This document shows positions 1 to 40,225 of a DNA stretch of 63,105 nt, piece after piece. Position numbers and translations under genes: made by a program. The stretch is from a virus. Taxonomy: Duplodnaviria; Caudoviricetes. The notes under the pieces were generated by a model, which saw only the letters and a program-made list of their open reading frames with translations, did no database searches and was not told the origin of the DNA. The first letter of the stretch is position 1. Each line of letters begins with the position of its first letter. Where the stretch lies: positions 1 to 63,105 of the IMG/VR virus record IMGVR_UViG_3300036831_000039, one strand, 5' to 3'.

Positions 1-116
1 ACCTTTATCTGCACAGGTGTGGTGGGCTCCACAGGTAATTAGTGTTACATCCCTTCCTAGTACGTGTGTTCCTGGGGGGCCATTATACCAGCTAGTGTCT
101 GGAGGGCCTCCTGCTA
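1..116. repeat. Terminal direct repeat (circular assembly overlap), copy 1
   Basis: 1-116 is identical to 62977-63092, and an ORF reads through the join. Confidence 0.95.
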
Positions 117-2242
117 CTGCTGGAGTTGTATATTACTGCTCTGCATCAAATACTCTAACACAATTAGGAGCAAGTGGTATTACTCCTCCTGGATCATCTA
201 CATTAAACGCTTTAGCTAGATGGGGAAATACTTCTGGGGGCTCTCTTAAGAACTCTGGAGTTATACTTTCTGACACAGGTTCAATTACCGGTATAAGTTC
301 TCTTACTCTAGCCGGGACTGGAGTGGGGTCATTAAACGAAATATTGACTTCAACTCCTACTGGAATTCAAATTGTGGATCAAGGGGGTACTGAAAATGGG
401 CTAACCTTTGATATGTCGCTTTTTACCACAGATCATACAGTTCAGTGGCCTGATGCAGCAGGTATAGTAACCCTTGGTGGTAATACATTTAGTGGTACGG
501 GTAATATTGTACGCGCTACTTCGCCAACTCTGGTGACGCCTAATCTCGGTACGCCCTCTGCGGCTACTCTTACAAATGCAACAGGACTCCCGATTTCAAC
601 AGGAGTGTCGGGGCTTGCGTCTGGTATCGCGACATTCCTCGCTACGTCAACTAGCGCTAATCTCGCGACGGCGGTGACCGATGAAACCGGCAGTGGCGTG
701 CTCGTATTCGGCACTTCTCCTACGTTAGTTACGCCAACACTTGGCGCGGCTACAGTGACAACCCTCAACAAGGTCACGATCACCGCTCCCGCGACTGGAT
801 CGACACTTACGATCGCTGATGGCAAGACACTTACAGCGAGCAATAACGCGACTGTAAGTGGCACGAATACGGGCGACCAGACCATCACGTTGACTGGCGA
901 CGTTACCGGTAGTGGCACCGGCTCATTCTCGACATCCGTTAATCTGCTCCACCCAAACACGACGCTCATCACGTCATCCAACTCACCATATTCTGTTGCG
1001 GCGACCGACTTCTTCATTGGAGCTGACGCCACGTCTGGCGTGATTACAATCAATCTCCCCGCTGCTACCGGCACTCATCGGCTTGTAGCAATTAAAAAAA
1101 TAGATGCGGTGAACAACGTAACTATTACTCCTAATGGTACTGATACTATTGATGGTGTAAATGCTTCGATGGTAGCGAGCGCTCAGAATGCAAATCATGT
1201 TCTAATGGACGCTGCTTCTGGGGTTTGGTATACATATCATCGGGTAGCGGTTGGAGGTTGTTGTTCTGGTTCTACCAATAATATTACAGTTAATGTTTTA
1301 AATACTACTGCTACAACAGCAGGTACATCTAGATCTGATACTGCTACTGCACCTACTGCCTCGGCGTCTACTCAAGCTGGAGTTAATTACTCGATCACAG
1401 CTTCTAATGCTACAGCGGGAACAACTAATGCGGGCGCACAGGCTGGTGGTATCGTCAACATCACAGCCGGTAATGCGGCCCGTCTGACATCTGGCAACGC
1501 CAACGGCGGGGGTCTAAATCTCTCAGTAGGCAATGGCATTGGCACAGGGACTATTGGTTTCATATCACTCTACAACTCTGGATATGTAAGTGGCTCAATA
1601 GGACTTCCGACGCAGCCACTATTGCAGTTCGGGTGTGCTGGAACTAACTGTACCACTGGCGGAGGTGACGGATTCTTTTACACCAGTAACGCCGATGTTG
1701 CACTTTCAACTGGAGGAACCGCAGCAAGCACGATAGTATTTGCACGAAACGGATCGAGCTTAGGAAATGTAGGTGTTGGGTCCGTTGCTCTCCCGAATAC
1801 GGGATCGATTGGATGGGGCTCAGCAGCCCTAGTAAGTGGCGCTGTGGAACAAACTGTGGTGGATACGTGGCTGATACGTTCAGCGCCGAGTGTAGTCAAA
1901 TTCAGTGCTAATGGTTCAGCACAGTACCCTCCAAAGGCCCTGACGCTTTCAAACGGGGCGAATAATGATCTTGCCATTGCTGGTGCGGGCTTTGTGCGTG
2001 TCACCGGGCCAACAGGAGCATTCTCAATTAGTGGATTTGCTGCCGGTCAGGATGGCGAAGTTTTGAGAGTTTACAATGCTACATCGCAGGCTATGACAAT
2101 TACAAATAAAGCTACATCAACAGCAGCAAACCAAATTAATACTCTGACTGGTGCAGATGTAGTTCTTCGTACAGGACAGTCGTTTGCTACTTTCATTTAT
2201 GACGGTACGTCTTCTTTTTGGATTTTGACGGCTGCTAATTAA
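1..2242 (+). CDS. Fibre-like virion protein, 3' part; true start is ATG 62936 across the join (~760 aa with signal peptide)
   Basis: T/G/S/A-rich beta-type sequence with TDETGSGVLVFGTSPTLVTP and ITINLPAATG..IKKID..VTITPNGTDTIDG motifs typical of phage fibres. The frame continues upstream from 62936. Confidence 0.7.
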   Translation, partial: PLSAQVWWAPQVISVTSLPSTCVPGGPLYQLVSGGPPATAGVVYYCSASNTLTQLGASGITPPGSSTLNALARWGNTSGGSLKNSGVILSDTGSITGISSLTLAGTGVGSLNEILTSTPTGIQIVDQGGTENGLTFDMSLFTTDHTVQWPDAAGIVTLGGNTFSGTGNIVRATSPTLVTPNLGTPSAATLTNATGLPISTGVSGLASGIATFLATSTSANLATAVTDETGSGVLVFGTSPTLVTPTLGAATVTTLNKVTITAPATGSTLTIADGKTLTASNNATVSGTNTGDQTITLTGDVTGSGTGSFSTSVNLLHPNTTLITSSNSPYSVAATDFFIGADATSGVITINLPAATGTHRLVAIKKIDAVNNVTITPNGTDTIDGVNASMVASAQNANHVLMDAASGVWYTYHRVAVGGCCSGSTNNITVNVLNTTATTAGTSRSDTATAPTASASTQAGVNYSITASNATAGTTNAGAQAGGIVNITAGNAARLTSGNANGGGLNLSVGNGIGTGTIGFISLYNSGYVSGSIGLPTQPLLQFGCAGTNCTTGGGDGFFYTSNADVALSTGGTAASTIVFARNGSSLGNVGVGSVALPNTGSIGWGSAALVSGAVEQTVVDTWLIRSAPSVVKFSANGSAQYPPKALTLSNGANNDLAIAGAGFVRVTGPTGAFSISGFAAGQDGEVLRVYNATSQAMTITNKATSTAANQINTLTGADVVLRTGQSFATFIYDGTSSFWILTAAN

Positions 2243-3889: not shown

Positions 3890-4993
3890 ATGGCTGAACT
3901 AGAACAGATTTCAGTAGCCACTCACCGTTTTATTCGCAAAAACGGAGCAAAGCTGGTTGATAACGTATTCCAGCGTGGGGCCACGGGCAAGTATCTACGT
4001 GATACCCTAAAAGAAGACTATACAGGCGGTCGTCTTATCCAGGAAAATGTCCTGTATGATGTTACGTCTGGTGGATTCTACCAGAAGGGCGAAAGTTTCG
4101 ATATCACGCAGCACCAGATGTTCGAGCATCTAGAGTTCTTGCCGAAGTATTTCTATGAGAATATTACCCTCTTTAAGGAAGATATTCAGGTTCTTAACCG
4201 CGCTGGTAGTGAGGCTGAGATTTTCTCGCTGGTCAAGGCGGCTACAGAAACTGCATTTAGATCCGCAGGCGCTAAGATTAACCTTGCGGTATTTTTCCAG
4301 GGTCAGGGCGTTGGTACTAGTAACTATATCAAGGGCATTAACGGCTTCGCTGAAGCTCTTAATGATGGCTCTGCGCCGTCTTGGGACGGTAACAGCTATA
4401 CCACTTATGGTGGACTAACTCGTGGTGGAAAGGTTGGTACTACCCTCAATTCCATTCCGGTTAAGGTCGATGGCACACTAGAGCTTCCTCTTCTAGAGGA
4501 ACAGTATGGTAAGGCTATGATTGATGATGAGCCTAACCTCATTATCACTACGCCTCTCAACCTTAGCTATCTTAAGGAAAAGCTCTGGGCGCAGCAGATT
4601 TATGAAACTACCCAGGATGTTAAGGCCGGTATCACTGCTCTTAAGTTTAATGGTGCTAACATTCTTTGGGATAGATATTGCCCAGGGTCTGAAATTGCTG
4701 GTCGTGTTGATCCAGCCGCTAATCGCCTTCTAGATCAGACAATTGGTCTAGGCACTTCATATCCAACTATGACTTCCACGGCTGGTGCTGCTGGTGAGTC
4801 ACTGTGGATTCTCACCGCCAAGAAGCCATTTATCAACTTCTATGTTTCGTCTGATGAAGAGTATGCGTTCGGATTTACTGGATTCAAGGTTGCTCAGGAT
4901 AATACAGTAATTGCTGGTCAGATTCTTCTGGCAGCCAACATGACTGTACCTGCCCCTCGTGTCCATCGTCAGCTTCACACGATTACTGGTTAA
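3890..4993 (+). CDS. Major capsid protein
   Basis: 367 aa with strong GGGAGG RBS and biased codons; LVDNVF, GGRLIQE, INGFAEAL, YGGLTR, PNLIITT, LKFNGA motifs typical of HK97-fold capsids. Confidence 0.8.
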   Translation: MAELEQISVATHRFIRKNGAKLVDNVFQRGATGKYLRDTLKEDYTGGRLIQENVLYDVTSGGFYQKGESFDITQHQMFEHLEFLPKYFYENITLFKEDIQVLNRAGSEAEIFSLVKAATETAFRSAGAKINLAVFFQGQGVGTSNYIKGINGFAEALNDGSAPSWDGNSYTTYGGLTRGGKVGTTLNSIPVKVDGTLELPLLEEQYGKAMIDDEPNLIITTPLNLSYLKEKLWAQQIYETTQDVKAGITALKFNGANILWDRYCPGSEIAGRVDPAANRLLDQTIGLGTSYPTMTSTAGAAGESLWILTAKKPFINFYVSSDEEYAFGFTGFKVAQDNTVIAGQILLAANMTVPAPRVHRQLHTITG

Positions 4994-5907: not shown

Positions 5908-6822
5908 GTGGCCGAAACTTTTGAAGGATTAGCGGGAAAGGTCTTACTGTCATGCCCTTCTGCGGGACCATTTCTAGCCAGAGAATGGATTAGCTCCGCG
6001 TGGCTGGATTTAATGCGCAGTCGGGAATGGTCATGGCGCTGGAAGTATGCCTATATTCAGATTCCGGCAGTATATAGTACTGGTACAGCATCTATTAGTG
6101 TCGGAACTACTACGGTTACTCTAACTGGAGCTACCGTACTTGCGGCCTGGGTAGGTAGACAGTTTAGAGCCGGGTATAATACTCCAATTCTTACAATTAC
6201 TTCCGCAGTCGATGGAGCAAGTACATTTGAATTAGATCAGCCTTGGTATGGGGTTGATGCTATAAATTCTCCGTATAATGTGTATCAGGCCTATTATCCC
6301 ATGCCAACTGGTTGTACTGCTATTAGAAGCGCTACAGACCCTAGAAATCAGTTCCCTATAGCGACCACAGGCCTTACTAAGGAAGATTTAGACCAACGTG
6401 ATCCACAGCGTACGGTAGGTGGTGCTCCACCACGAGCTATAGTCCCTATTGATTTCTATAATGGAGTCCCACGATGGGAGTTATGGCCACACCAGTATAC
6501 GCAGGGTTTTATTAGAATTTCCTACGTACAAAAGCCCGCTGATCCATTTACTGTTGGTGCAGTAATTCCAGACACTATTGATGGAGAAGTTATCATTGAA
6601 AAAGCTTTAGCTCTCTGTGCTAGATGGCCCGGAGCTAGTAGAGAAAATCCTAATCCGTACTACAGCGATAATAATGCTCAATTCCACTCTGGAGAATTCC
6701 AACGGCGATTAGCCGTACTCCAACGAGAAGACAACGAACTTATGCAGCAAGACGTTAGATATCGTGGCCAGGGACGCTATATTCCTAGTGCTGCGTGGGC
6801 TCAGATGCATGATGTAGGATAA
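5908..6822 (+). CDS. Head-tail adaptor-like protein
   Basis: Position, plus WSWRW, ELWP and YVQKP patterns; contains a YSTGTASI fibre-like insert. Confidence 0.55.
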   Translation: MAETFEGLAGKVLLSCPSAGPFLAREWISSAWLDLMRSREWSWRWKYAYIQIPAVYSTGTASISVGTTTVTLTGATVLAAWVGRQFRAGYNTPILTITSAVDGASTFELDQPWYGVDAINSPYNVYQAYYPMPTGCTAIRSATDPRNQFPIATTGLTKEDLDQRDPQRTVGGAPPRAIVPIDFYNGVPRWELWPHQYTQGFIRISYVQKPADPFTVGAVIPDTIDGEVIIEKALALCARWPGASRENPNPYYSDNNAQFHSGEFQRRLAVLQREDNELMQQDVRYRGQGRYIPSAAWAQMHDVG

Positions 6823-11400: not shown

Positions 11401-12373
11401 GGATAATGGAACAGCAATTAATTGGCATCTAGGAACTCCAGCATTTGATGCTCAGGATAGACGCGCAAAGAAACGTTGGGGGGATTTTGCATTCAAATCT
11501 TTCCCCGATAATTCTACAATTAATCTTGCACTTAAATATAATAACTACTCTTCTGCTGGTACCATATCACCGGCAACAATCACAGGAGCACAAGAAATTA
11601 TTAGCGTTCATGACATTAATTCTGGGGTAGGCACCGAACAATATAATGCCGCCCTTGATATTACAGGAGCCATTAGCGGTAATGCCCCCAAATTGTACTG
11701 GTGGGAGCCTTCTTATATTTACCGGCCAGAAGATAGTTTTCTACGTGGTACTGATTGGGACGATTTAGGATTAGATAGTGACAAATATATTTATGGTCTT
11801 CATATCACTACCAATACTCAAGGACTTTCTAGAACTGTACGACTTGAATATGATGGCGGACAGTTAGGAGCACTATTAACTATTAATCACAATGGATATC
11901 TTACTAATCCTTATCCATTTGATCCGTTCATTGCCCGAAGAATACGATTCTTGCCAACTGATCCTAATTCATGGCAGGAGTTTAAGTACCAAATTGTGTT
12001 TGAACCGGAGCCGCCACTAGTAGCACAGTGGGGCCCTAGTCAGCAAACATCTTTTGGATATGATGGGTATTTTCATTTACGAGAAGCTTATATAACTCTT
12101 ACCAATTCTGCGCCAGTTACTTTGACCATAACTCGGGCAGATGATGGTCAACAGTTTACATATACTATTCCCCCTGGCACTAGGAAAAAGACCTATCTAC
12201 AGCTAAATCCGATTAAAGCCAAAGGAATTTATTTTGAGATGACTTCTAGTGCTAACTTTAGGGTATATAAAGACGATATAGCTTTCATGGTTAAGCCATG
12301 GGCTAGCCAGCAACAGTTTAGACTTATCTCGCCATTTGGATTCTCTCATGGTGGTGGAGAGGCTAAGATTTAA
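8435..12373 (+). CDS. Tail nozzle/tubular protein B-like protein (1312 aa)
   Basis: LENIR..GSVQPRPG start, beta-propeller-like C-terminal half, RAKKRW motif, position. Confidence 0.6.
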   Translation: MAEERFKRVTNRFYCRGIDLNNPLDSIRDNYFPILENIRSYQDGSVQPRPGLTLIGSVITGQTPVHSIRRLNDPKNSTWARIVGAGTGLAYGQTSFTQAQYNSSNVVFSGDPLTMVPFRPDQSTDSWMYIADSLAAYKIRRDGVVHKIGVAPPTVTPIAELDRPLFDKLLNFQSTTGWTSDGTVCPGTGFWTTPNRINTTTTKVIYDSGVNGWCCIVPASMSNIGVGSLLDVTYAGPSTETVIVYEAFRGSSATTIASVAWDDGSVGPGMCTIRPANSLNEIKRNAVILINGTIYSRITDVISGPDGSIAFRCSNPAFGIGISIQVINSFRVYSLGGFAANGGDVLAQKDLSFGILATGTGYIQNNTALDLTKMSVSLSSTGGALYDDDYIHIAFKCSDLSKLTQGRIMFNCDATDTTFAQNYYYRSFTPNDLLLAAKGTLTSLDTQTVAINNNTIDTTQLRSGPILSGKNDSNVDNLLADADQRLANLPQNRKKTGDVDPNSPNTAGTTRSQTATGDNQWSEIRFKRADLQRVGTANRGYADITGFRLELTISALAVTIDVNSLTIWGSSEPDTGDIGEPYQYRYRYRVSSTGACSNFSPANFSGVNALRTQVIVAMTASTAPEVDKIDIERRGGTSTEWTFIGTVSNSVHQFTDTISDDAAIGNAPLSDGDTNFQPWPVRLAPISVTASIVGGCVIKTLSALPTGLLKGTAITVNGIATTFRRMLSAGVYELSDSIGNTTGGVTVEVPEPVITSPLSALWGPWKGRALACGDDNNPGTLYISNGNNFDSTLDILTLEITSPSEPLINGCEFNGRCYVFSSERMFEIEQIGDNQFIYSEVPNAKGLWSRWALAVGSRIFFEGKDGLYGTMGGPPISITDQTLFPLFPNEGNLGVSVNGFNPPNVISGQEKYHRVSYYDNYVYFDYKDTQGGYRSLMFTADSSEPGWYPDVYTPGVSFHYGEEGKGVHSILCGGTDTTTGNLYQLSGTSDNGTAINWHLGTPAFDAQDRRAKKRWGDFAFKSFPDNSTINLALKYNNYSSAGTISPATITGAQEIISVHDINSGVGTEQYNAALDITGAISGNAPKLYWWEPSYIYRPEDSFLRGTDWDDLGLDSDKYIYGLHITTNTQGLSRTVRLEYDGGQLGALLTINHNGYLTNPYPFDPFIARRIRFLPTDPNSWQEFKYQIVFEPEPPLVAQWGPSQQTSFGYDGYFHLREAYITLTNSAPVTLTITRADDGQQFTYTIPPGTRKKTYLQLNPIKAKGIYFEMTSSANFRVYKDDIAFMVKPWASQQQFRLISPFGFSHGGGEAKI

Positions 12374-13257
12374 TGGCTATTTCTGAATATGATGTAAGGG
12401 TATCAATTCAGGATGTAGAGGATAAAACTCTACTAGCTAGATCTCTACAAAAAATAACCAATGTATTACGAACTATTGGGGGAAAAGTAGATACATTATC
12501 ATCAACTAATAATGGTAGTTCTTCTAGTAATAATTTATCTATTCCCCAAATTAAGTCAGAATTACAGTCTGGAGGCTCTAGTCCGCTTAACGTAGAAGGC
12601 TTATTGGGGCATTTGGCACAAGCCCAATCAGCGGGATTGGCAGTATATTCCTCTGTGCCTAGTAGCGCGGTAATTCAAACTCTTAAGAGCGACCAATTAG
12701 TGCTTATAGAAGGAACTCCAGACACTCTTAAGCGGGTCGTAGCCGGGGCTCCATCTACGCTTAAAGACGTTAATGTAGCCTCTGCGGGGCCATCTAATAT
12801 GGTCACCACTGATACAGTACAAACTATAACTGGAGCTAAAACATTTGGCACTCCACCTATAGGAACGCAATATAACAGTATTCTTACTGGTAATAGCTCT
12901 AACACTGCTATTGTGGCATCTACGACTGCTTATATGCCTATAAGTGGTCCTCAAATTCCTACAATGTCTGATGTTGTGGCCGGAATTACTGAAGTAATCC
13001 CTATTGCTGGAACTATTAAAAATCTTTATGTTAAATTAGATACTAATATTGTTGGATCTGTTACTATAACTGTAATGAAGAATACGACTTCGACAATTCT
13101 AACAACTACAGTTTCCGGTGCTACAGATAATAACCATAATATTACTGACACAGTTTCTATTACTGCCGGAGATACATTAAGTGTTAGAATAGTCACTGAC
13201 GGATCAGCAGCCTCTTGTAAATACACGTGGGGAATTATATTTATTGGGACTATTTAA
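12373..13257 (+). CDS. Tail-associated fibre/adaptor protein
   Basis: VTTDTVQTITGAKTF fibre motif and C-terminal beta-sandwich-like region. Confidence 0.55.
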   Translation: MAISEYDVRVSIQDVEDKTLLARSLQKITNVLRTIGGKVDTLSSTNNGSSSSNNLSIPQIKSELQSGGSSPLNVEGLLGHLAQAQSAGLAVYSSVPSSAVIQTLKSDQLVLIEGTPDTLKRVVAGAPSTLKDVNVASAGPSNMVTTDTVQTITGAKTFGTPPIGTQYNSILTGNSSNTAIVASTTAYMPISGPQIPTMSDVVAGITEVIPIAGTIKNLYVKLDTNIVGSVTITVMKNTTSTILTTTVSGATDNNHNITDTVSITAGDTLSVRIVTDGSAASCKYTWGIIFIGTI

Positions 13258-14838
13258 ATGAAAAAATTTATACTTACATTATTTGTTATAGTTTTTCCAC
13301 TTTCACTCCAAGCTACCACATTTGGTAAGTGGCAGGGATACGCCGAGAGGGGCGGATCACAGGTTAGTGTGTCAGGATTTCTAAGTAGCACTAAGGTTCA
13401 ACAGTCATTTCCAGGAGCTACTGAAACCGTATATCTTACCGGAACAACCACTATTGCTACTATCTACAGTGATGCCGGAGTAACTCTTAAAAGTAATCCA
13501 TTTACAGTAGACTCTACTGGATTTGGATATTTTTACATAGATAATTCTATTTCGTTCGATATTAAATTTAGCGGTACAGGTATTTCTGTTCCATTTACGC
13601 TATCCAATATTACTCTGTCTAACGGAGTCCTTCCCGCAGTTCCGTCTATTATAGATTATGGGGCTATAAATGATGGAAGAACCCTAACAGGAACAGTAAA
13701 TAGCGGTATTGCTACCCTTAATTTAACTTCTGGATCATTTACTAGTGCAGACATAGGAAGGTCTTTTACTGTTCTAGGCGGTGCTGGAGTTGGAGTAGGC
13801 CTAACCGGGACCATTCTATCAATTGGCTCATCCACCTCTGCTACTATTTCTTCAACACCATCTGCTTCAGTATCAAATGCTATGACCTATATAGCTACGG
13901 ATAGCACGTCTGCCATCCAAACTGCACTGGATAATAGCAAAGCTGTAACTATTCCAGCAGGAGCGTTTGGATTCACTCGGCTAAGGCTTCATTATGGCCA
14001 AAGCATTAATGGAGCTGGTATAGGAAGTTCAACACTTCTACGAATTGGACTAGGCGCAGGGGGCCCTGCGATTTCTATGGTTGGCGGAAGTGATATAGCA
14101 CAAGAGCTTAAACTATCTAATTTTTCAGTGCGTTGTGGTCAGATAGGAACAGGACTTGATGGAATTAATCTAGGGTATGAAGTAGCAGGCGGCGGATTTG
14201 CGTTCGGATCTATTATCGAAAATGTTAAAGTCTGGAGTGCGTCCGGATTTGCGTTTAATCTAGCATCCAATGCTGGAATTGTCCGCAATATATGGGCAGA
14301 AAATCAAAACTCTGGCTCACAATCTACTGCTGGTGGATTCAAAGTTACAGTAACAAATTTATATGCGGATATTCTTGGTGTTGAAGGATTTTATCCAGCA
14401 GGCCCATATATATTGAATGCCTCAGGCTCATCAACGTACAAAAATATTCAATCTCAGCTTCAGGGTACTTATGCTACTACTGATGTTGTAAGTATAGGCG
14501 TAACTGGCACTGTTATAGATGGGCTATACCTTTTTGGTGGAGGCACGTATCGGGATGTAGTGCGCATTCTTGGAGGCCAGCAGTTCACAGAGCTTCGACG
14601 ATTAAACGTAGACCCTACGCACCCGGCTTATACTAATTTGGTTAATGATATTCCTAATGGTCGAACATATACTTCGGCAGTAGCTCACTTATCACGCTAT
14701 GTTCAGGCTGCGGATGGTTCTCCAGACACAGCCGCATATCCAGTGTTTGCTGATAATGCAAGTGCATTGGCCGCAGGATATATTAGTGGGGGAATTTATC
14801 GTACATCAACAGGTGAACTTCGTATTGTAGTTCCATAA
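13258..14838 (+). CDS. Tailspike/beta-helix depolymerase-like protein with N-terminal signal peptide
   Basis: ATIYSD..SNPFT head-binding motif; DYGA..DG and DSTSAIQTALD..VTIPAG pectate-lyase-3-like motifs; starts MKKFILTLFVIVFPLSLQA. Confidence 0.7.
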   Translation: MKKFILTLFVIVFPLSLQATTFGKWQGYAERGGSQVSVSGFLSSTKVQQSFPGATETVYLTGTTTIATIYSDAGVTLKSNPFTVDSTGFGYFYIDNSISFDIKFSGTGISVPFTLSNITLSNGVLPAVPSIIDYGAINDGRTLTGTVNSGIATLNLTSGSFTSADIGRSFTVLGGAGVGVGLTGTILSIGSSTSATISSTPSASVSNAMTYIATDSTSAIQTALDNSKAVTIPAGAFGFTRLRLHYGQSINGAGIGSSTLLRIGLGAGGPAISMVGGSDIAQELKLSNFSVRCGQIGTGLDGINLGYEVAGGGFAFGSIIENVKVWSASGFAFNLASNAGIVRNIWAENQNSGSQSTAGGFKVTVTNLYADILGVEGFYPAGPYILNASGSSTYKNIQSQLQGTYATTDVVSIGVTGTVIDGLYLFGGGTYRDVVRILGGQQFTELRRLNVDPTHPAYTNLVNDIPNGRTYTSAVAHLSRYVQAADGSPDTAAYPVFADNASALAAGYISGGIYRTSTGELRIVVP

Positions 14839-21813: not shown

Positions 21814-22136
21814 GAGCCACGTCCGTTGATAGATGGATTAAGAAATGGAGGCGTCGATTCGGCGCTTCTATGCCTTATAACATAGTATGGATGGACGATT
21901 CCCACGCTAATACCGAGCCGATCGCTGGTGAAGTAATATATGCTGAAACTGGATGGGGGCATGCTGGAGAGGCTATAGACGTTATCATATATCCAGAATT
22001 TGTTGTAGAGCTAGAGTCAGACGAAACCAGGGAACGTATCATTCTACATGAACTCTTGCATCCTATTCTAAATTCTGTAGACGAATTCACAGTGAACAAA
22101 GCCACAGAACTTTTATGGAAGGCCTATGAGCAATAG
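21810..22136 (+). CDS. Small zincin-like metalloprotein
   Basis: IILHELLH motif and a downstream E; ATGA overlap. Confidence 0.6.
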   Translation: MRATSVDRWIKKWRRRFGASMPYNIVWMDDSHANTEPIAGEVIYAETGWGHAGEAIDVIIYPEFVVELESDETRERIILHELLHPILNSVDEFTVNKATELLWKAYEQ

Positions 22137-22656
22137 ATCTGAAAAGTTTGATAGAGCCATACCGTATATATTAGCTAATGAGGGATCAGAATTTACGAAT
22201 GATGTAGATGATCGGGGCGGGGCTACAAAATATGGTATTACCTTGCGTACGGCCAAAACTGTACCGGGCTGCGAGAACTGGACAGAAGACGATATCAAGA
22301 ATCTATCTGAGGAAAAAGCTAAAGATATTTACTACGCCCTATTCTGGAAGTTTGAAGGTATTAGTGACCAAAGAGTTGCCACTAAACTTCTAGATGTATT
22401 TGTTAACCTTCCACCACGTAATGCAATTAAAGTTTTCCAGAGTTCGGCTAATGTTTGTGGCTCTAGAATTGTCGTAGATGGGCTATGGGGATTACGTACA
22501 ATTAATGCTATTAATGACAATAATCCTCAGTGTATTTTAGAGAAAATTGTGCTATTATTGTCCCAATATTATAATTCTATTGTTAAGGTTAATTCTTCAC
22601 AAGCAAAGTTTTTGAAAGGATGGCTTAACCGGGCTAATAGACTTCCAAAGGAATAA
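22126..22656 (+). CDS. Endolysin, GH108 family with peptidoglycan-binding C-terminus
   Basis: EG..TND..DRGGATKYGIT; VDGLWG; KFLKGWLNRA. Confidence 0.9.
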   Translation: MSNRSEKFDRAIPYILANEGSEFTNDVDDRGGATKYGITLRTAKTVPGCENWTEDDIKNLSEEKAKDIYYALFWKFEGISDQRVATKLLDVFVNLPPRNAIKVFQSSANVCGSRIVVDGLWGLRTINAINDNNPQCILEKIVLLLSQYYNSIVKVNSSQAKFLKGWLNRANRLPKE

Positions 22657-22662
22657 TATTCA

Positions 22663-22869
22663 ATGAGCAAAAATACTCTTGTACTAATTGTAGCCATTGC
22701 GTCATCTCTAGGCTCCTGGCTAGTTCAGCTACCTGTAGGGCCCCATGTAATTACTCCTCAGAGCCTAGGAGCACTAGTTCTTCTAGTTGTAGGTGGAGTG
22801 TCTGGTATTGTAGGATATACTCCCGGTGGAAAGGGTGCTGTAGTAGTTGATCCAACTCCAAAGGCATAA
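22663..22869 (+). CDS. Putative holin (2 TM)
   Basis: Two hydrophobic segments, immediately after the endolysin. Confidence 0.55.
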   Translation: MSKNTLVLIVAIASSLGSWLVQLPVGPHVITPQSLGALVLLVVGGVSGIVGYTPGGKGAVVVDPTPKA

Positions 22870-22980: not shown

Positions 22981-23397
22981 ATGAGGATTAAATCTCGGAT
23001 GACTGTGGGGGTGCTAGTGATCGTGGCTAGTACCCTTTTTTCTTGTAGTACAGGCCCGAAGGTTAAGTCCACTAGTATTATTGTACCTACCCTTCAAACA
23101 CCTGCCCCCATGTGCTATATTACCTGTCCACAAGGATACATGTCTCGACAGCACCACTTGTGCCATTCTGGGATGAGCCGCTATTTTGAGGACATTACAG
23201 TAATCGGTGAAAATAACAACCCTAATAGCCCCTCTGATAGCCGATGGTTTACTACTGAAGCAGCCTACCTAAAGATTGATGTAGAGCGCGGTACATGCCG
23301 CTCCATCATTGCTCAAATCATAGCTGGCCGCTCTTTTTCAGAGCGTGATGCAGGATCTAGCGTTGATCCTCTTACTATTGGTCCCAAACAAAAATAG
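22981..23397 (+). CDS. Lipoprotein (possible o-spanin or other function)
   Basis: Basic N-terminus, hydrophobic core and LFS-C lipobox. Confidence 0.5.
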   Translation: MRIKSRMTVGVLVIVASTLFSCSTGPKVKSTSIIVPTLQTPAPMCYITCPQGYMSRQHHLCHSGMSRYFEDITVIGENNNPNSPSDSRWFTTEAAYLKIDVERGTCRSIIAQIIAGRSFSERDAGSSVDPLTIGPKQK

Positions 23398-39532: not shown

Positions 39533-40225
39533 TTATGGCCGTGCTGGACTACACTGCTGCCCACAGGATTGTCCCGTCCACCAAGTGTAAAACGGCTGCT
39601 GATCTACCCCCACTACATAAAACGGATACTCATGGGTATTTCTTAGCTCTCCTGGGCGATCAAAGGATACCGTACAATCCTCTTTACAATTGGAATCATC
39701 AATCATGCCATCATAGAACAGAGCGTTAAAGAGGACTTGTCCATGGATTTTGCCATCCTCTCCAGCAACTCCTCCAAAGGTTCCTCTGCCACTCCACGCT
39801 TCCGCAGCACTACAATCGATGGAGATATCTATCTTGACGCATTTTAATCTCATGGGCTTTGTTACTGTATGGTCATGAATAACCCCGAGAGGAGAATCAT
39901 ACCCCAATTGTGCAAAATAATCTTGAGGAATTATGTTTGAACCGTGAATTTGCCAACTATCCACTGCGGCTGCATTACATTCTAACCACTTATAATGGGC
40001 CCCAATAGCTGATCCGTATTTTTGGCGGATATCATCATACCAGCTATTGGCCTTGTGGAGTTGGGCTAGATATTGAGGATTAATTGTTGGACAGCGCACT
40101 AGATCTGGATTCGGGTCTAGTGTTTGAGCATGGACCGCACTTGTAATCAGTAGTAGTATTATACAAATAAGTATAGTCACTAATAGTATGTTAATAGGGG
40201 CAGGATCGTCATTGTATTGTTTCAT
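39533..40225 (-). CDS. Exported Cys-rich protein
   Basis: Long hydrophobic N-segment ending AVHA-Q; multiple Cys in the mature part. Confidence 0.6.
   Translation of the reverse strand: MKQYNDDPAPINILLVTILICIILLLITSAVHAQTLDPNPDLVRCPTINPQYLAQLHKANSWYDDIRQKYGSAIGAHYKWLECNAAAVDSWQIHGSNIIPQDYFAQLGYDSPLGVIHDHTVTKPMRLKCVKIDISIDCSAAEAWSGRGTFGGVAGEDGKIHGQVLFNALFYDGMIDDSNCKEDCTVSFDRPGELRNTHEYPFYVVGVDQQPFYTWWTGQSCGQQCSPARP

Follow-up and report, generated by a model that had tools for sequence, protein, structure and literature searches.

A tailspike-type gene with a predicted Sec signal peptide was identified at positions 13258-14838 of IMG/VR record IMGVR_UViG_3300036831_000039, a stretch of soil phage DNA of 63,105 bases with a G+C content of 43% (the whole stretch is called the window below). 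From its sequence and modelled fold, the product is read as a polysaccharide depolymerase of the tailspike type, made as a precursor, whose N-terminal module would bind the particle. In front of this module stands a leader that shows all the sequence features expected of a cleavable Sec signal peptide and is very probably a working export signal. The reading preferred here, with a probability of roughly 0.6, is that the spike is exported and cleaved and that the virion is its more likely destination. The spike gene, its parts and its upstream neighbour are as follows.

13258-14838, + strand: spike gene, 526 amino acids, with leader, beta module and beta-helix-like part
13258-13314, + strand: leader, residues 1-19, from direct reading, with the cut placed at 19 by the heuristic described below
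13315-13617, + strand: particle-binding-like N-terminal beta module, residues 20-120, from the predicted local distance difference test (pLDDT) and structural matches
13618-14838, + strand: linker, then a right-handed beta-helix part like that of pectate lyases (residues 121-526 and the stop codon), from PHROG, ESM Atlas and BFVD
12373-13257, + strand: open reading frame (ORF) of 294 amino acids without a leader, directly upstream of the spike gene

The in-frame codon before the ATG of the spike gene is TAA (ATTTAAATG), and this TAA is the stop codon of ORF 12373-13257. Because the upstream TAA abuts the spike ATG, the two genes are probably translationally coupled. The N-terminus of the spike is MKKFILTLFVIVFPLSLQA, followed by TTFGKWQGY. 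An n-region of MKK (residues 1-3) leads into an uncharged hydrophobic core of ten residues, FILTLFVIVF, and the best 12-residue Kyte-Doolittle mean of the leader was 2.91, starting from residue 4. In the c-region, P14, L17 and A19 stand at positions -6, -3 and -1 of the predicted signal-peptidase I cut, which falls after A19 and would leave a mature spike beginning at T20. The residue at +1 is Thr and the leader contains no Arg, so that it is neither a lipoprotein signal nor a twin-arginine (Tat) signal. It also differs from signal-anchor-release (SAR) domains, which are Gly/Ala/Ser-rich, weakly hydrophobic and uncut, in having a core of Phe, Ile, Leu and Val and then Ala at -1. Leaders were called by our own rule-based Sec-leader heuristic in window ORFs of at least 100 amino acids.

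The start codon is fixed by the sequence around it. The only ATG, GTG or TTG in codons 2-60 is a GTG at codon 38, which lies past the family-invariant residues G27 and G32. Because no such codon occurs between codon 1 and codon 38, the conserved domain cannot be produced without translation of the leader. An annotation artefact, in which translation begins at a downstream start or the ORF is not a gene, is hardly credible. It would agree with the absence of a strong Shine-Dalgarno motif upstream of the spike ATG, where only a GGGA was found about 10-13 nt 5' of it; Shine-Dalgarno-type sites are used by genes upstream of the spike gene. Against an artefact, a start at codon 38 would remove G27 and G32, the TAA-ATG junction fits coupled translation, and leaders are carried by relatives, both among the proteins (113/157) and among the viral loci (16-17 of 27).

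Protein relatives were collected in a search with residues 21-131, leader excluded, against 1.84 billion representatives. At E<=1e-3 the module family comprised 2680 representative clusters, and at E<=1e-10 it still comprised 1059. Leaders were analyzed in a sample of 157 proteins, consisting of the best 150 of the module-search matches plus proteins from an earlier search. The module started at residue 12-45 in 113 of the 157, which were counted as leader-bearing, at residue 6 or earlier in 38, counted as leaderless, and elsewhere in 6; with an added hydrophobicity cut the numbers were 112, 38 and 7. No common sequence was found among the leaders. A net charge of +1 to +3 over the first 8 residues was present in 106/113, with a Leu-rich core next. 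Counted from the invariant Gly, Ala was found at -8 in 58/113 and at -6 in 54/113, an Ala-x-Ala (AxA) pattern, and Pro at -9 in 30/113.

The position of the predicted cut was compared with the first residue of the leaderless proteins. The +1 residue picked by the rule lay five residues before the invariant Gly in 43/113 and seven before it in 28/113, and Met1 of the leaderless relatives lay five residues before it in 23/38 and seven before it in 9/38. For the window spike the rule picks T20 as +1, in keeping with this pattern. The leaderless relatives start where the leader-bearing relatives are predicted to be cut. Because these starts coincide with the predicted cuts, the leader behaves as a removable targeting peptide and not as a structural element. 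Two side observations concern the residues at the cut. A Met stands exactly at the predicted +1 of leader-bearing L014, L015, P0025, P0041, P0064 and P0132 (the window gene has no such Met), and this Met could be left over from an upstream extension that created the leader, or could serve as an additional start for a cytoplasmic form. Many relatives have Arg or Lys directly after the predicted cut, which E. coli proteins that are exported efficiently do not usually have.

The same comparison bears on the possibility that the hydrophobic N-terminus stays uncut, as a membrane anchor or as a structural helix in a trimer core or tail plug, in which case the protein would not pass beyond the cytoplasmic side, or would stay attached to the inner membrane. 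This is improbable. AlphaFold2 did place a helix at residues 2-15 with a pLDDT of 74-84, and basic residues after the segment could weaken export. A structural element is expected to be conserved and always present, whereas the leader sequence varies freely, with only the physics of the n-, h- and c-regions and the AxA pattern kept, and in 38/157 relatives the segment is missing, their first residue falling exactly at the predicted cut. The core, rich in Leu, Ile, Phe and Val, is also unlike the Gly/Ala-rich SAR anchors described in PMC6116005. Both the uncut helix and a wrong start fit the comparative data badly, and cleavage after A19 remains the preferred reading.

In a scan of IMG/VR, 27 loci were found to encode the module, and each was read at the DNA level from its upstream stop. 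A clear leader directly 5' of the module was present at 16/27 loci, and L018 was ambiguous. Five loci (L005, L006, L007, L012 and L029, the first three near-identical to one another) encode the full module without a leader, and these are truly leaderless because only 1-4 codons separate the start from an upstream stop. A shorter, Pam1-like form of the module was found without a leader at a further 5/27 loci. At one locus, L016:363-12287, six leader-bearing ORFs of at least 250 amino acids were observed within 12 kb, including a second module copy and one Tat-like RRNFIK motif.

The leaders of the relatives suggest that the spike folds outside the cytoplasm, and the cysteines of the family were examined with regard to this. 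A pair of cysteines at columns 29 and 54 (window spike numbering) was present in 45/112 leader-bearing and 0/38 leaderless members (Fisher 1.9e-7). By corrected mutual information this pair came 10th among 6105 column pairs, and its first Cys was almost never present without the second. The C-terminal parts are unrelated between members, and they contained a median of 1.14 Cys per 100 amino acids in leader-bearing members versus 0.65 in leaderless ones (Mann-Whitney 5e-4). Even Cys counts in these parts outnumbered odd ones by 67:36 in leader-bearing members (p 0.003) versus 17:15 in leaderless ones. Taken at the level of the family, the pattern shows signs of an extracytoplasmic, oxidising compartment.

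The structure of the spike was predicted by AlphaFold2 with 50 family sequences. The beta domain, residues 21-120, was modelled with a pLDDT of 90-98. Among 48,161 solved chains searched with VIA-align, the top match was the head-binding domain of the Pam1 tailspike (7eeq_A, Z 9.0), and the top ten also included P22 gp9N three times (8eb7, 8tvr and 2vnl; Z 7.5-7.6), Sf6 gp14N (7sg7; 7.3) and Pan3 (9vyg_n; 7.0). Z values of 7-8 are common for small beta domains, yet four spike anchors stood within the top ten and Foldseek agreed, placing 9vyg (Pan3) and 7eeq (Pam1) first with E ~1e-3 and probability 1.0. A weak match to 7eeq was found by phmmer (E 0.06). No match to the Pfam family PF09008 Head_binding was obtained at E<=0.1, and the window module is not filed in that family. 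By the fold of the model, the N-terminal module resembles a virion anchor. Within it, N80, P81 and F82 were invariant in 10/10 aligned proteins, and the mean column identity of the module over these 10 proteins was 48%.

The remainder of the spike resembles a pectate-lyase-like beta-helix. PHROG 32881 'pectin lyase activity' matched residues 130-280 (E 4e-7). Look-alikes of the C-terminal part in the ESM Atlas were viral PF12708 clusters (score 0.93), and at a template modelling (TM) score of ~0.6, taken with the Atlas model, PF12708 clusters, Beta_helix clusters and one 'phage tailspike' cluster were found. BFVD gave 28 matches at E<=1e-3, the named ones being pectate-lyase, tail-fibre and tail-collar proteins of uncultured phages. 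The AlphaFold2 model of the C-terminal part was poor, with a pLDDT below 50 for most of residues 159-511. At E<=0.1, Pfam (PF12708 and PF13229 included) gave nothing for the spike except a weak and unrelated YEATS match, E 0.056, below the cut-off, and a word-based search for homologues of the C-terminal part returned none besides the spike itself. In 50 family members, the C-terminal parts were assigned to PF12708 in 15/50 and PF13229 in 9/50, and to Gp34_trimer, K1-lyase_C and End_N_terminal (endosialidase N-extension) in one each.

An earlier sequence-only reading of this gene had quoted the leader followed by TTFG, had taken the ATG abutting the previous stop (TAAATG) as support for the start, and had pointed to a virion-attachment-like domain (ATIYSD..SNPFT) and to a beta-helix motif (DSTSAIQTALD). 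The leader is present as quoted. The start was borne out by the in-frame TAA and by the next candidate start lying only at codon 38. The attachment motif falls within the conserved module that contains the invariant N80/P81/F82 and has the spike-anchor fold matches, and the beta-helix motif corresponds to residues 214-224, inside the PHROG 32881 match.

A second leader was found in an unrelated gene that crosses the ends of the window. A repeat of about 113 bases is present at both ends, the first ~113 bases being the same as 62977-63089, and the final ~16 bases of the window are not the same as the bases that follow position 113. Because of this end repeat (1-113 = 62977-63089), the genome is circular or terminally redundant with a size of ~62,976 bp, although the record is listed as linear. 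MKKLIGIIACLISIPLSAQ starts at an ATG at 62936, and through the end overlap the frame runs on into ORF 2-2242. This second fibre-like gene lies between the portal and the scaffold/capsid genes. It gave fibre-repeat matches to phage structural proteins by tblastn, and its sole detectable homologue, P0160 (623 amino acids), also opens with a leader. The virion genes other than the spike gene are given in the order in which they are read.

60385-62397: portal, no leader flagged
62936-63105, + strand: second fibre-like gene, start, with leader MKKLIGIIACLISIPLSAQ and a heuristic cut at 18; it runs on at the start of the window
2-2242, + strand: second fibre-like gene, body, ~760 amino acids in all
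3890-4993: major capsid protein, no leader flagged
5908-6822, + strand: SU10-type adaptor-like protein without a leader (Pfam PF24175 SU10_adaptor, E 2.3e-6, 28.6 bits with a cut-off of 27)
Between the adaptor gene and the gene for the 1312-amino-acid tail protein: structural protein of 460 amino acids
8435-12373, + strand: tail protein of 1312 amino acids without a leader, full-length homologue of Tunturi_2 gp32

The capsid protein, portal, adaptor, 1312-amino-acid protein and putative internal proteins have ordinary N-termini, and none was flagged by the heuristic. Among the virion genes of the window genome, predicted leaders are carried only by fibre- or spike-like proteins. The sequence-only reading had claimed MKK-type leaders on two unrelated appendage proteins, beyond what chance would give, and none on capsid and adaptor proteins. 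Both leaders were found, the mature parts of the two proteins are unrelated (best BLASTP E 0.74), and the leader recurs at the same place in 113/157 family members. The leaderless capsid and adaptor were likewise confirmed. Its further step, that the appendages are selectively exported, held in part: the leader features, the forced start, the attachment-like domain and the appendage-only leaders in this genome, with the like selectivity in Tunturi_2 and the 27 loci, agree with it.

By sequence, the nearest cultured phages are the Tunturiibacter phages Tunturi_1 and Tunturi_2, podophages of Acidobacteriota (PMC11924767). The capsid protein was 27% identical to that of the Tunturi phages over 57% of its length (E 3e-16), and for the 1312-amino-acid protein BLASTP gave a full-length match at 28% identity (E 6e-110) to gp32 of Tunturi_2, which is annotated 'virion structural protein'. 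The host is assigned by kinship to the Tunturi phages only; when host contigs were probed with a single protein, 242 pattern matches were obtained and none was confirmed.

Leaders were also found on fibre and spike proteins of these relatives. With a looser heuristic, 14/66 annotated coding sequences of Tunturi_2 were flagged. Five of the 14 form a block (L031 9802-22744) composed of gp12 (the module), gp13 'tail fiber protein', gp14 'pectin lyase', and gp16 and gp17 'virion structural protein'. These five make up the complete set of fibre and spike genes, with the lysis genes following immediately. The other nine flagged coding sequences are small hydrophobic or lipoprotein-like (44-194 amino acids), and the Tunturi_2 portal, capsid and gp11 'tail protein' carry no leader. 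Around the module genes of the 27 loci, further leader-bearing ORFs of at least 250 amino acids were present at 6/17 leader loci (13/91 ORFs) versus 0/10 leaderless loci (0/56 ORFs); the Fisher value was 0.0019 by ORF and 0.057 by locus, with some spurious antisense ORFs included in the counts and near-identity among three of the loci that lack a leader. Among the 13 additional leader-bearing proteins, 3 matched PHROG tail or tail-fibre families and 10 matched nothing.

Several observations weigh against export followed by incorporation into the virion. Leu at -3 of the spike leader is tolerated and suboptimal. Positive charges just after the cut hamper Sec export in E. coli; the window spike has K24 and R31 soon after the predicted cut, and among its relatives Arg stands at +1 in 28/113 and Lys or Arg three residues before the invariant Gly in 100/113. 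The finding that 113/113 leaders have a -1/-3 site is partly by construction, the search window being 11 residues long. The heuristic flagged four window ORFs, namely the two appendage genes, a lipoprotein-like ORF at 22981 and the antisense ORF 41956, and the last is probably spurious. On a FastTree tree with 151 rows, at least 21 switches between leader-bearing and leaderless were counted, which means either easy gain and loss or a poorly resolved tree. The window spike has a single Cys and Ala at both paired columns, which keeps the disulfide argument at the family level. The link between leader and Cys did not hold up once relatedness was taken into account: the tree-based test was underpowered, with only four well-supported independent contrasts, 2-3 of them concordant and none discordant (sign test p 0.25). 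In Tunturi_4, a siphovirus of the same host genus, a leader was found on 0/12 tail-region proteins; the same count does not support the idea that the leader is a host-wide trait. Finally, the precedent for leader-bearing proteins in virions, gp085-087 of Cellulophaga phage phi18:3, is a database annotation in an unrelated phage.

The main rival concerns the destination of the spike. The protein could be exported and never join the virion, acting as a free periplasmic or secreted depolymerase that trims exopolysaccharide or O-antigen and thereby eases release, destroys receptors or blocks superinfection, with the module as an evolutionary leftover or serving another purpose. All of the export evidence fits such an enzyme equally well, an exported tailspike-like bacterial protein exists in WceF (Tat signal, stewartan as substrate; PMC7949094), and a cytoplasmic particle and a periplasmic spike would have no obvious meeting place before lysis. 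That the exported spike ends up on the virion is given a little less than even odds. A free enzyme nevertheless seems unlikely on several grounds. The module is well conserved (48% in 10 proteins) and resembles domains with a known role in tail attachment, the spike gene sits inside the tail module and is probably coupled to its upstream neighbour, both fibre/spike-like proteins of the window and the whole Tunturi_2 block carry leaders, and the leader-bearing proteins of phi18:3 are annotated as found in virions. If no leader-bearing protein were virion-bound, the particle would be without an evident receptor-binding protein.

A route can be proposed by which an exported spike would reach the particle. 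SecYEG would carry the unfolded spike chain into the periplasm, where the leader would be removed after A19 and the spike would fold and trimerise. A particle built in the cytoplasm would receive its spikes only once the action of holin, endolysin and spanin mixes the compartments, which is the most speculative step. Before lysis, the periplasmic enzyme may also trim the surface polysaccharide of the host itself. As a tentative generalisation, two-compartment assembly would be widespread among short-tailed phages of soil and sea, with heads and tail cores made in the cytoplasm and all receptor-binding fibres and spikes exported by Sec, folded in the periplasm, often with disulfides, and docked at lysis. 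This set may include the window phage, Tunturi_1 and Tunturi_2, and perhaps the Cellulophaga Pachyviridae. Exported fibres and spikes could strip the dying cell of its own receptors before docking.

The remaining annotated genes of the window include candidates for the lysis functions.

22126-22656, + strand: GH108 endolysin without a leader (Pfam PF05838 5.8e-16, PF09374 1.2e-11)
22663-22869, + strand: holin-like small hydrophobic ORF, N-terminus read
22981-23397, + strand: lipoprotein-like ORF with a leader ending LFSC, just after the endolysin and the holin-like ORF

The lipoprotein-like ORF gave no family match and may be an outer-membrane spanin. Neither Pfam nor PHROG gave a match for the 294-amino-acid ORF upstream of the spike gene, and three large proteins encoded after the spike gene gave no family matches. 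A 120-amino-acid ORF downstream of the spike was considered as a counterpart of the acetyltransferase gp35 of Tunturi_2 and was rejected for lack of similarity (E 0.41). On the minus strand, ORF 39533-40225 (230 amino acids, no family match) has an acidic, Pro-containing start and then a strongly hydrophobic stretch to AVHAQ, and this N-terminus looks like a signal-anchor or a late-starting leader.

According to the textbooks, tailed-phage assembly takes place entirely in the cytoplasm. If export followed by assembly is true, tailed phages would have a new route of morphogenesis, in which host-recognition parts can mature outside the cytoplasm. It would also bear on the timing of assembly relative to lysis in such phages, on spike stability, for instance through disulfides, on remodelling of the host surface by exported depolymerases before lysis, and on the expression of such spikes for phage engineering or enzyme use. 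No description of signal peptides on tailed-phage fibres or spikes was found in the titles and abstracts searched, subscription journals lying outside the search. In passages of PMC10975493, PMC13001222, PMC6116005, PMC5723332 and PMC12210884, signal peptides were mentioned only for an esterase, spanins, endolysins, and Bacteroides phage ORFs or cargo of extracellular contractile injection systems. The main text of the Tunturi paper (PMC11924767) mentions signal peptides 0 times. The question of export is directly testable, as Tunturi_1 and Tunturi_2 are in culture on a soil bacterium.

The spike was compared with known systems. The tailspikes of P22 (gp9), Sf6 (gp14) and the cyanopodophages Pam1 and Pan3 have the layout predicted for it, with a tail-anchoring beta domain at the N-terminus and an enzyme part folded as a right-handed beta-helix behind it. 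They differ in that their solved chains align from their first residues to residues 10-26 onward of the window model and hence show no leader, and the sequence similarity to the window module is marginal (E 0.06). Spikes of this type assemble in the cytoplasm, and those of P22 attach to heads spontaneously in vitro. Closer in sequence is gp12 of Tunturi_1 and Tunturi_2, which has both leader and module (38% identity over residues 1-109), its leader ending ASA followed by Q; the capsid protein and the 1300-amino-acid tail protein are also common to these phages and the window phage. Tunturi gp12 differs in its length of 1190 amino acids and in its unrelated C-terminal part.

A likeness of another kind was seen in phi18:3 (Pachyviridae), whose gp085, gp086 and gp087 are large proteins with MK..-type leaders ending in A or S and then Q. 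In GenBank these are annotated as 'structural protein; annotation based on experimental MS/MS proteomics analysis', MS/MS being tandem mass spectrometry, and their counterparts from further Cellulophaga phages bear the annotation pectate lyase. The sister phage phi46:3 has five such leader-bearing genes in a row. The host of phi18:3 belongs to a different phylum, Bacteroidota, and the phage group is unrelated to the window phage.

Lys44 of fOg44 and the SAR endolysins are described in PMC6116005 as late phage proteins sent via the host Sec system before lysis. They are lysis enzymes and not virion parts, and SAR domains stay uncut in the membrane; the GH108 endolysin of the window, unlike them, has no leader. 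Two cellular systems are similar in architecture. The MAT fibres of Bdellovibrio have a signal peptide, a conserved beta-rich N-terminal domain of ~130 amino acids and a trimeric fibre with varied tips (PMC10769870), and WceF of Pantoea is a tailspike-like beta-helix trimer that leaves the cell by way of a Tat signal and has stewartan as its substrate (PMC7949094). Like the predicted window spike, they combine a signal peptide with an N-terminal domain and then a fibre or beta-helix. They are cellular genes whose products act in the matrix or at the surface of the cell, the export signal of WceF is Tat and not Sec, and the likeness is one of architecture. These proteins (PMC10769870, PMC7949094), together with bacterial pectate lyases, show that such folds can form after export.

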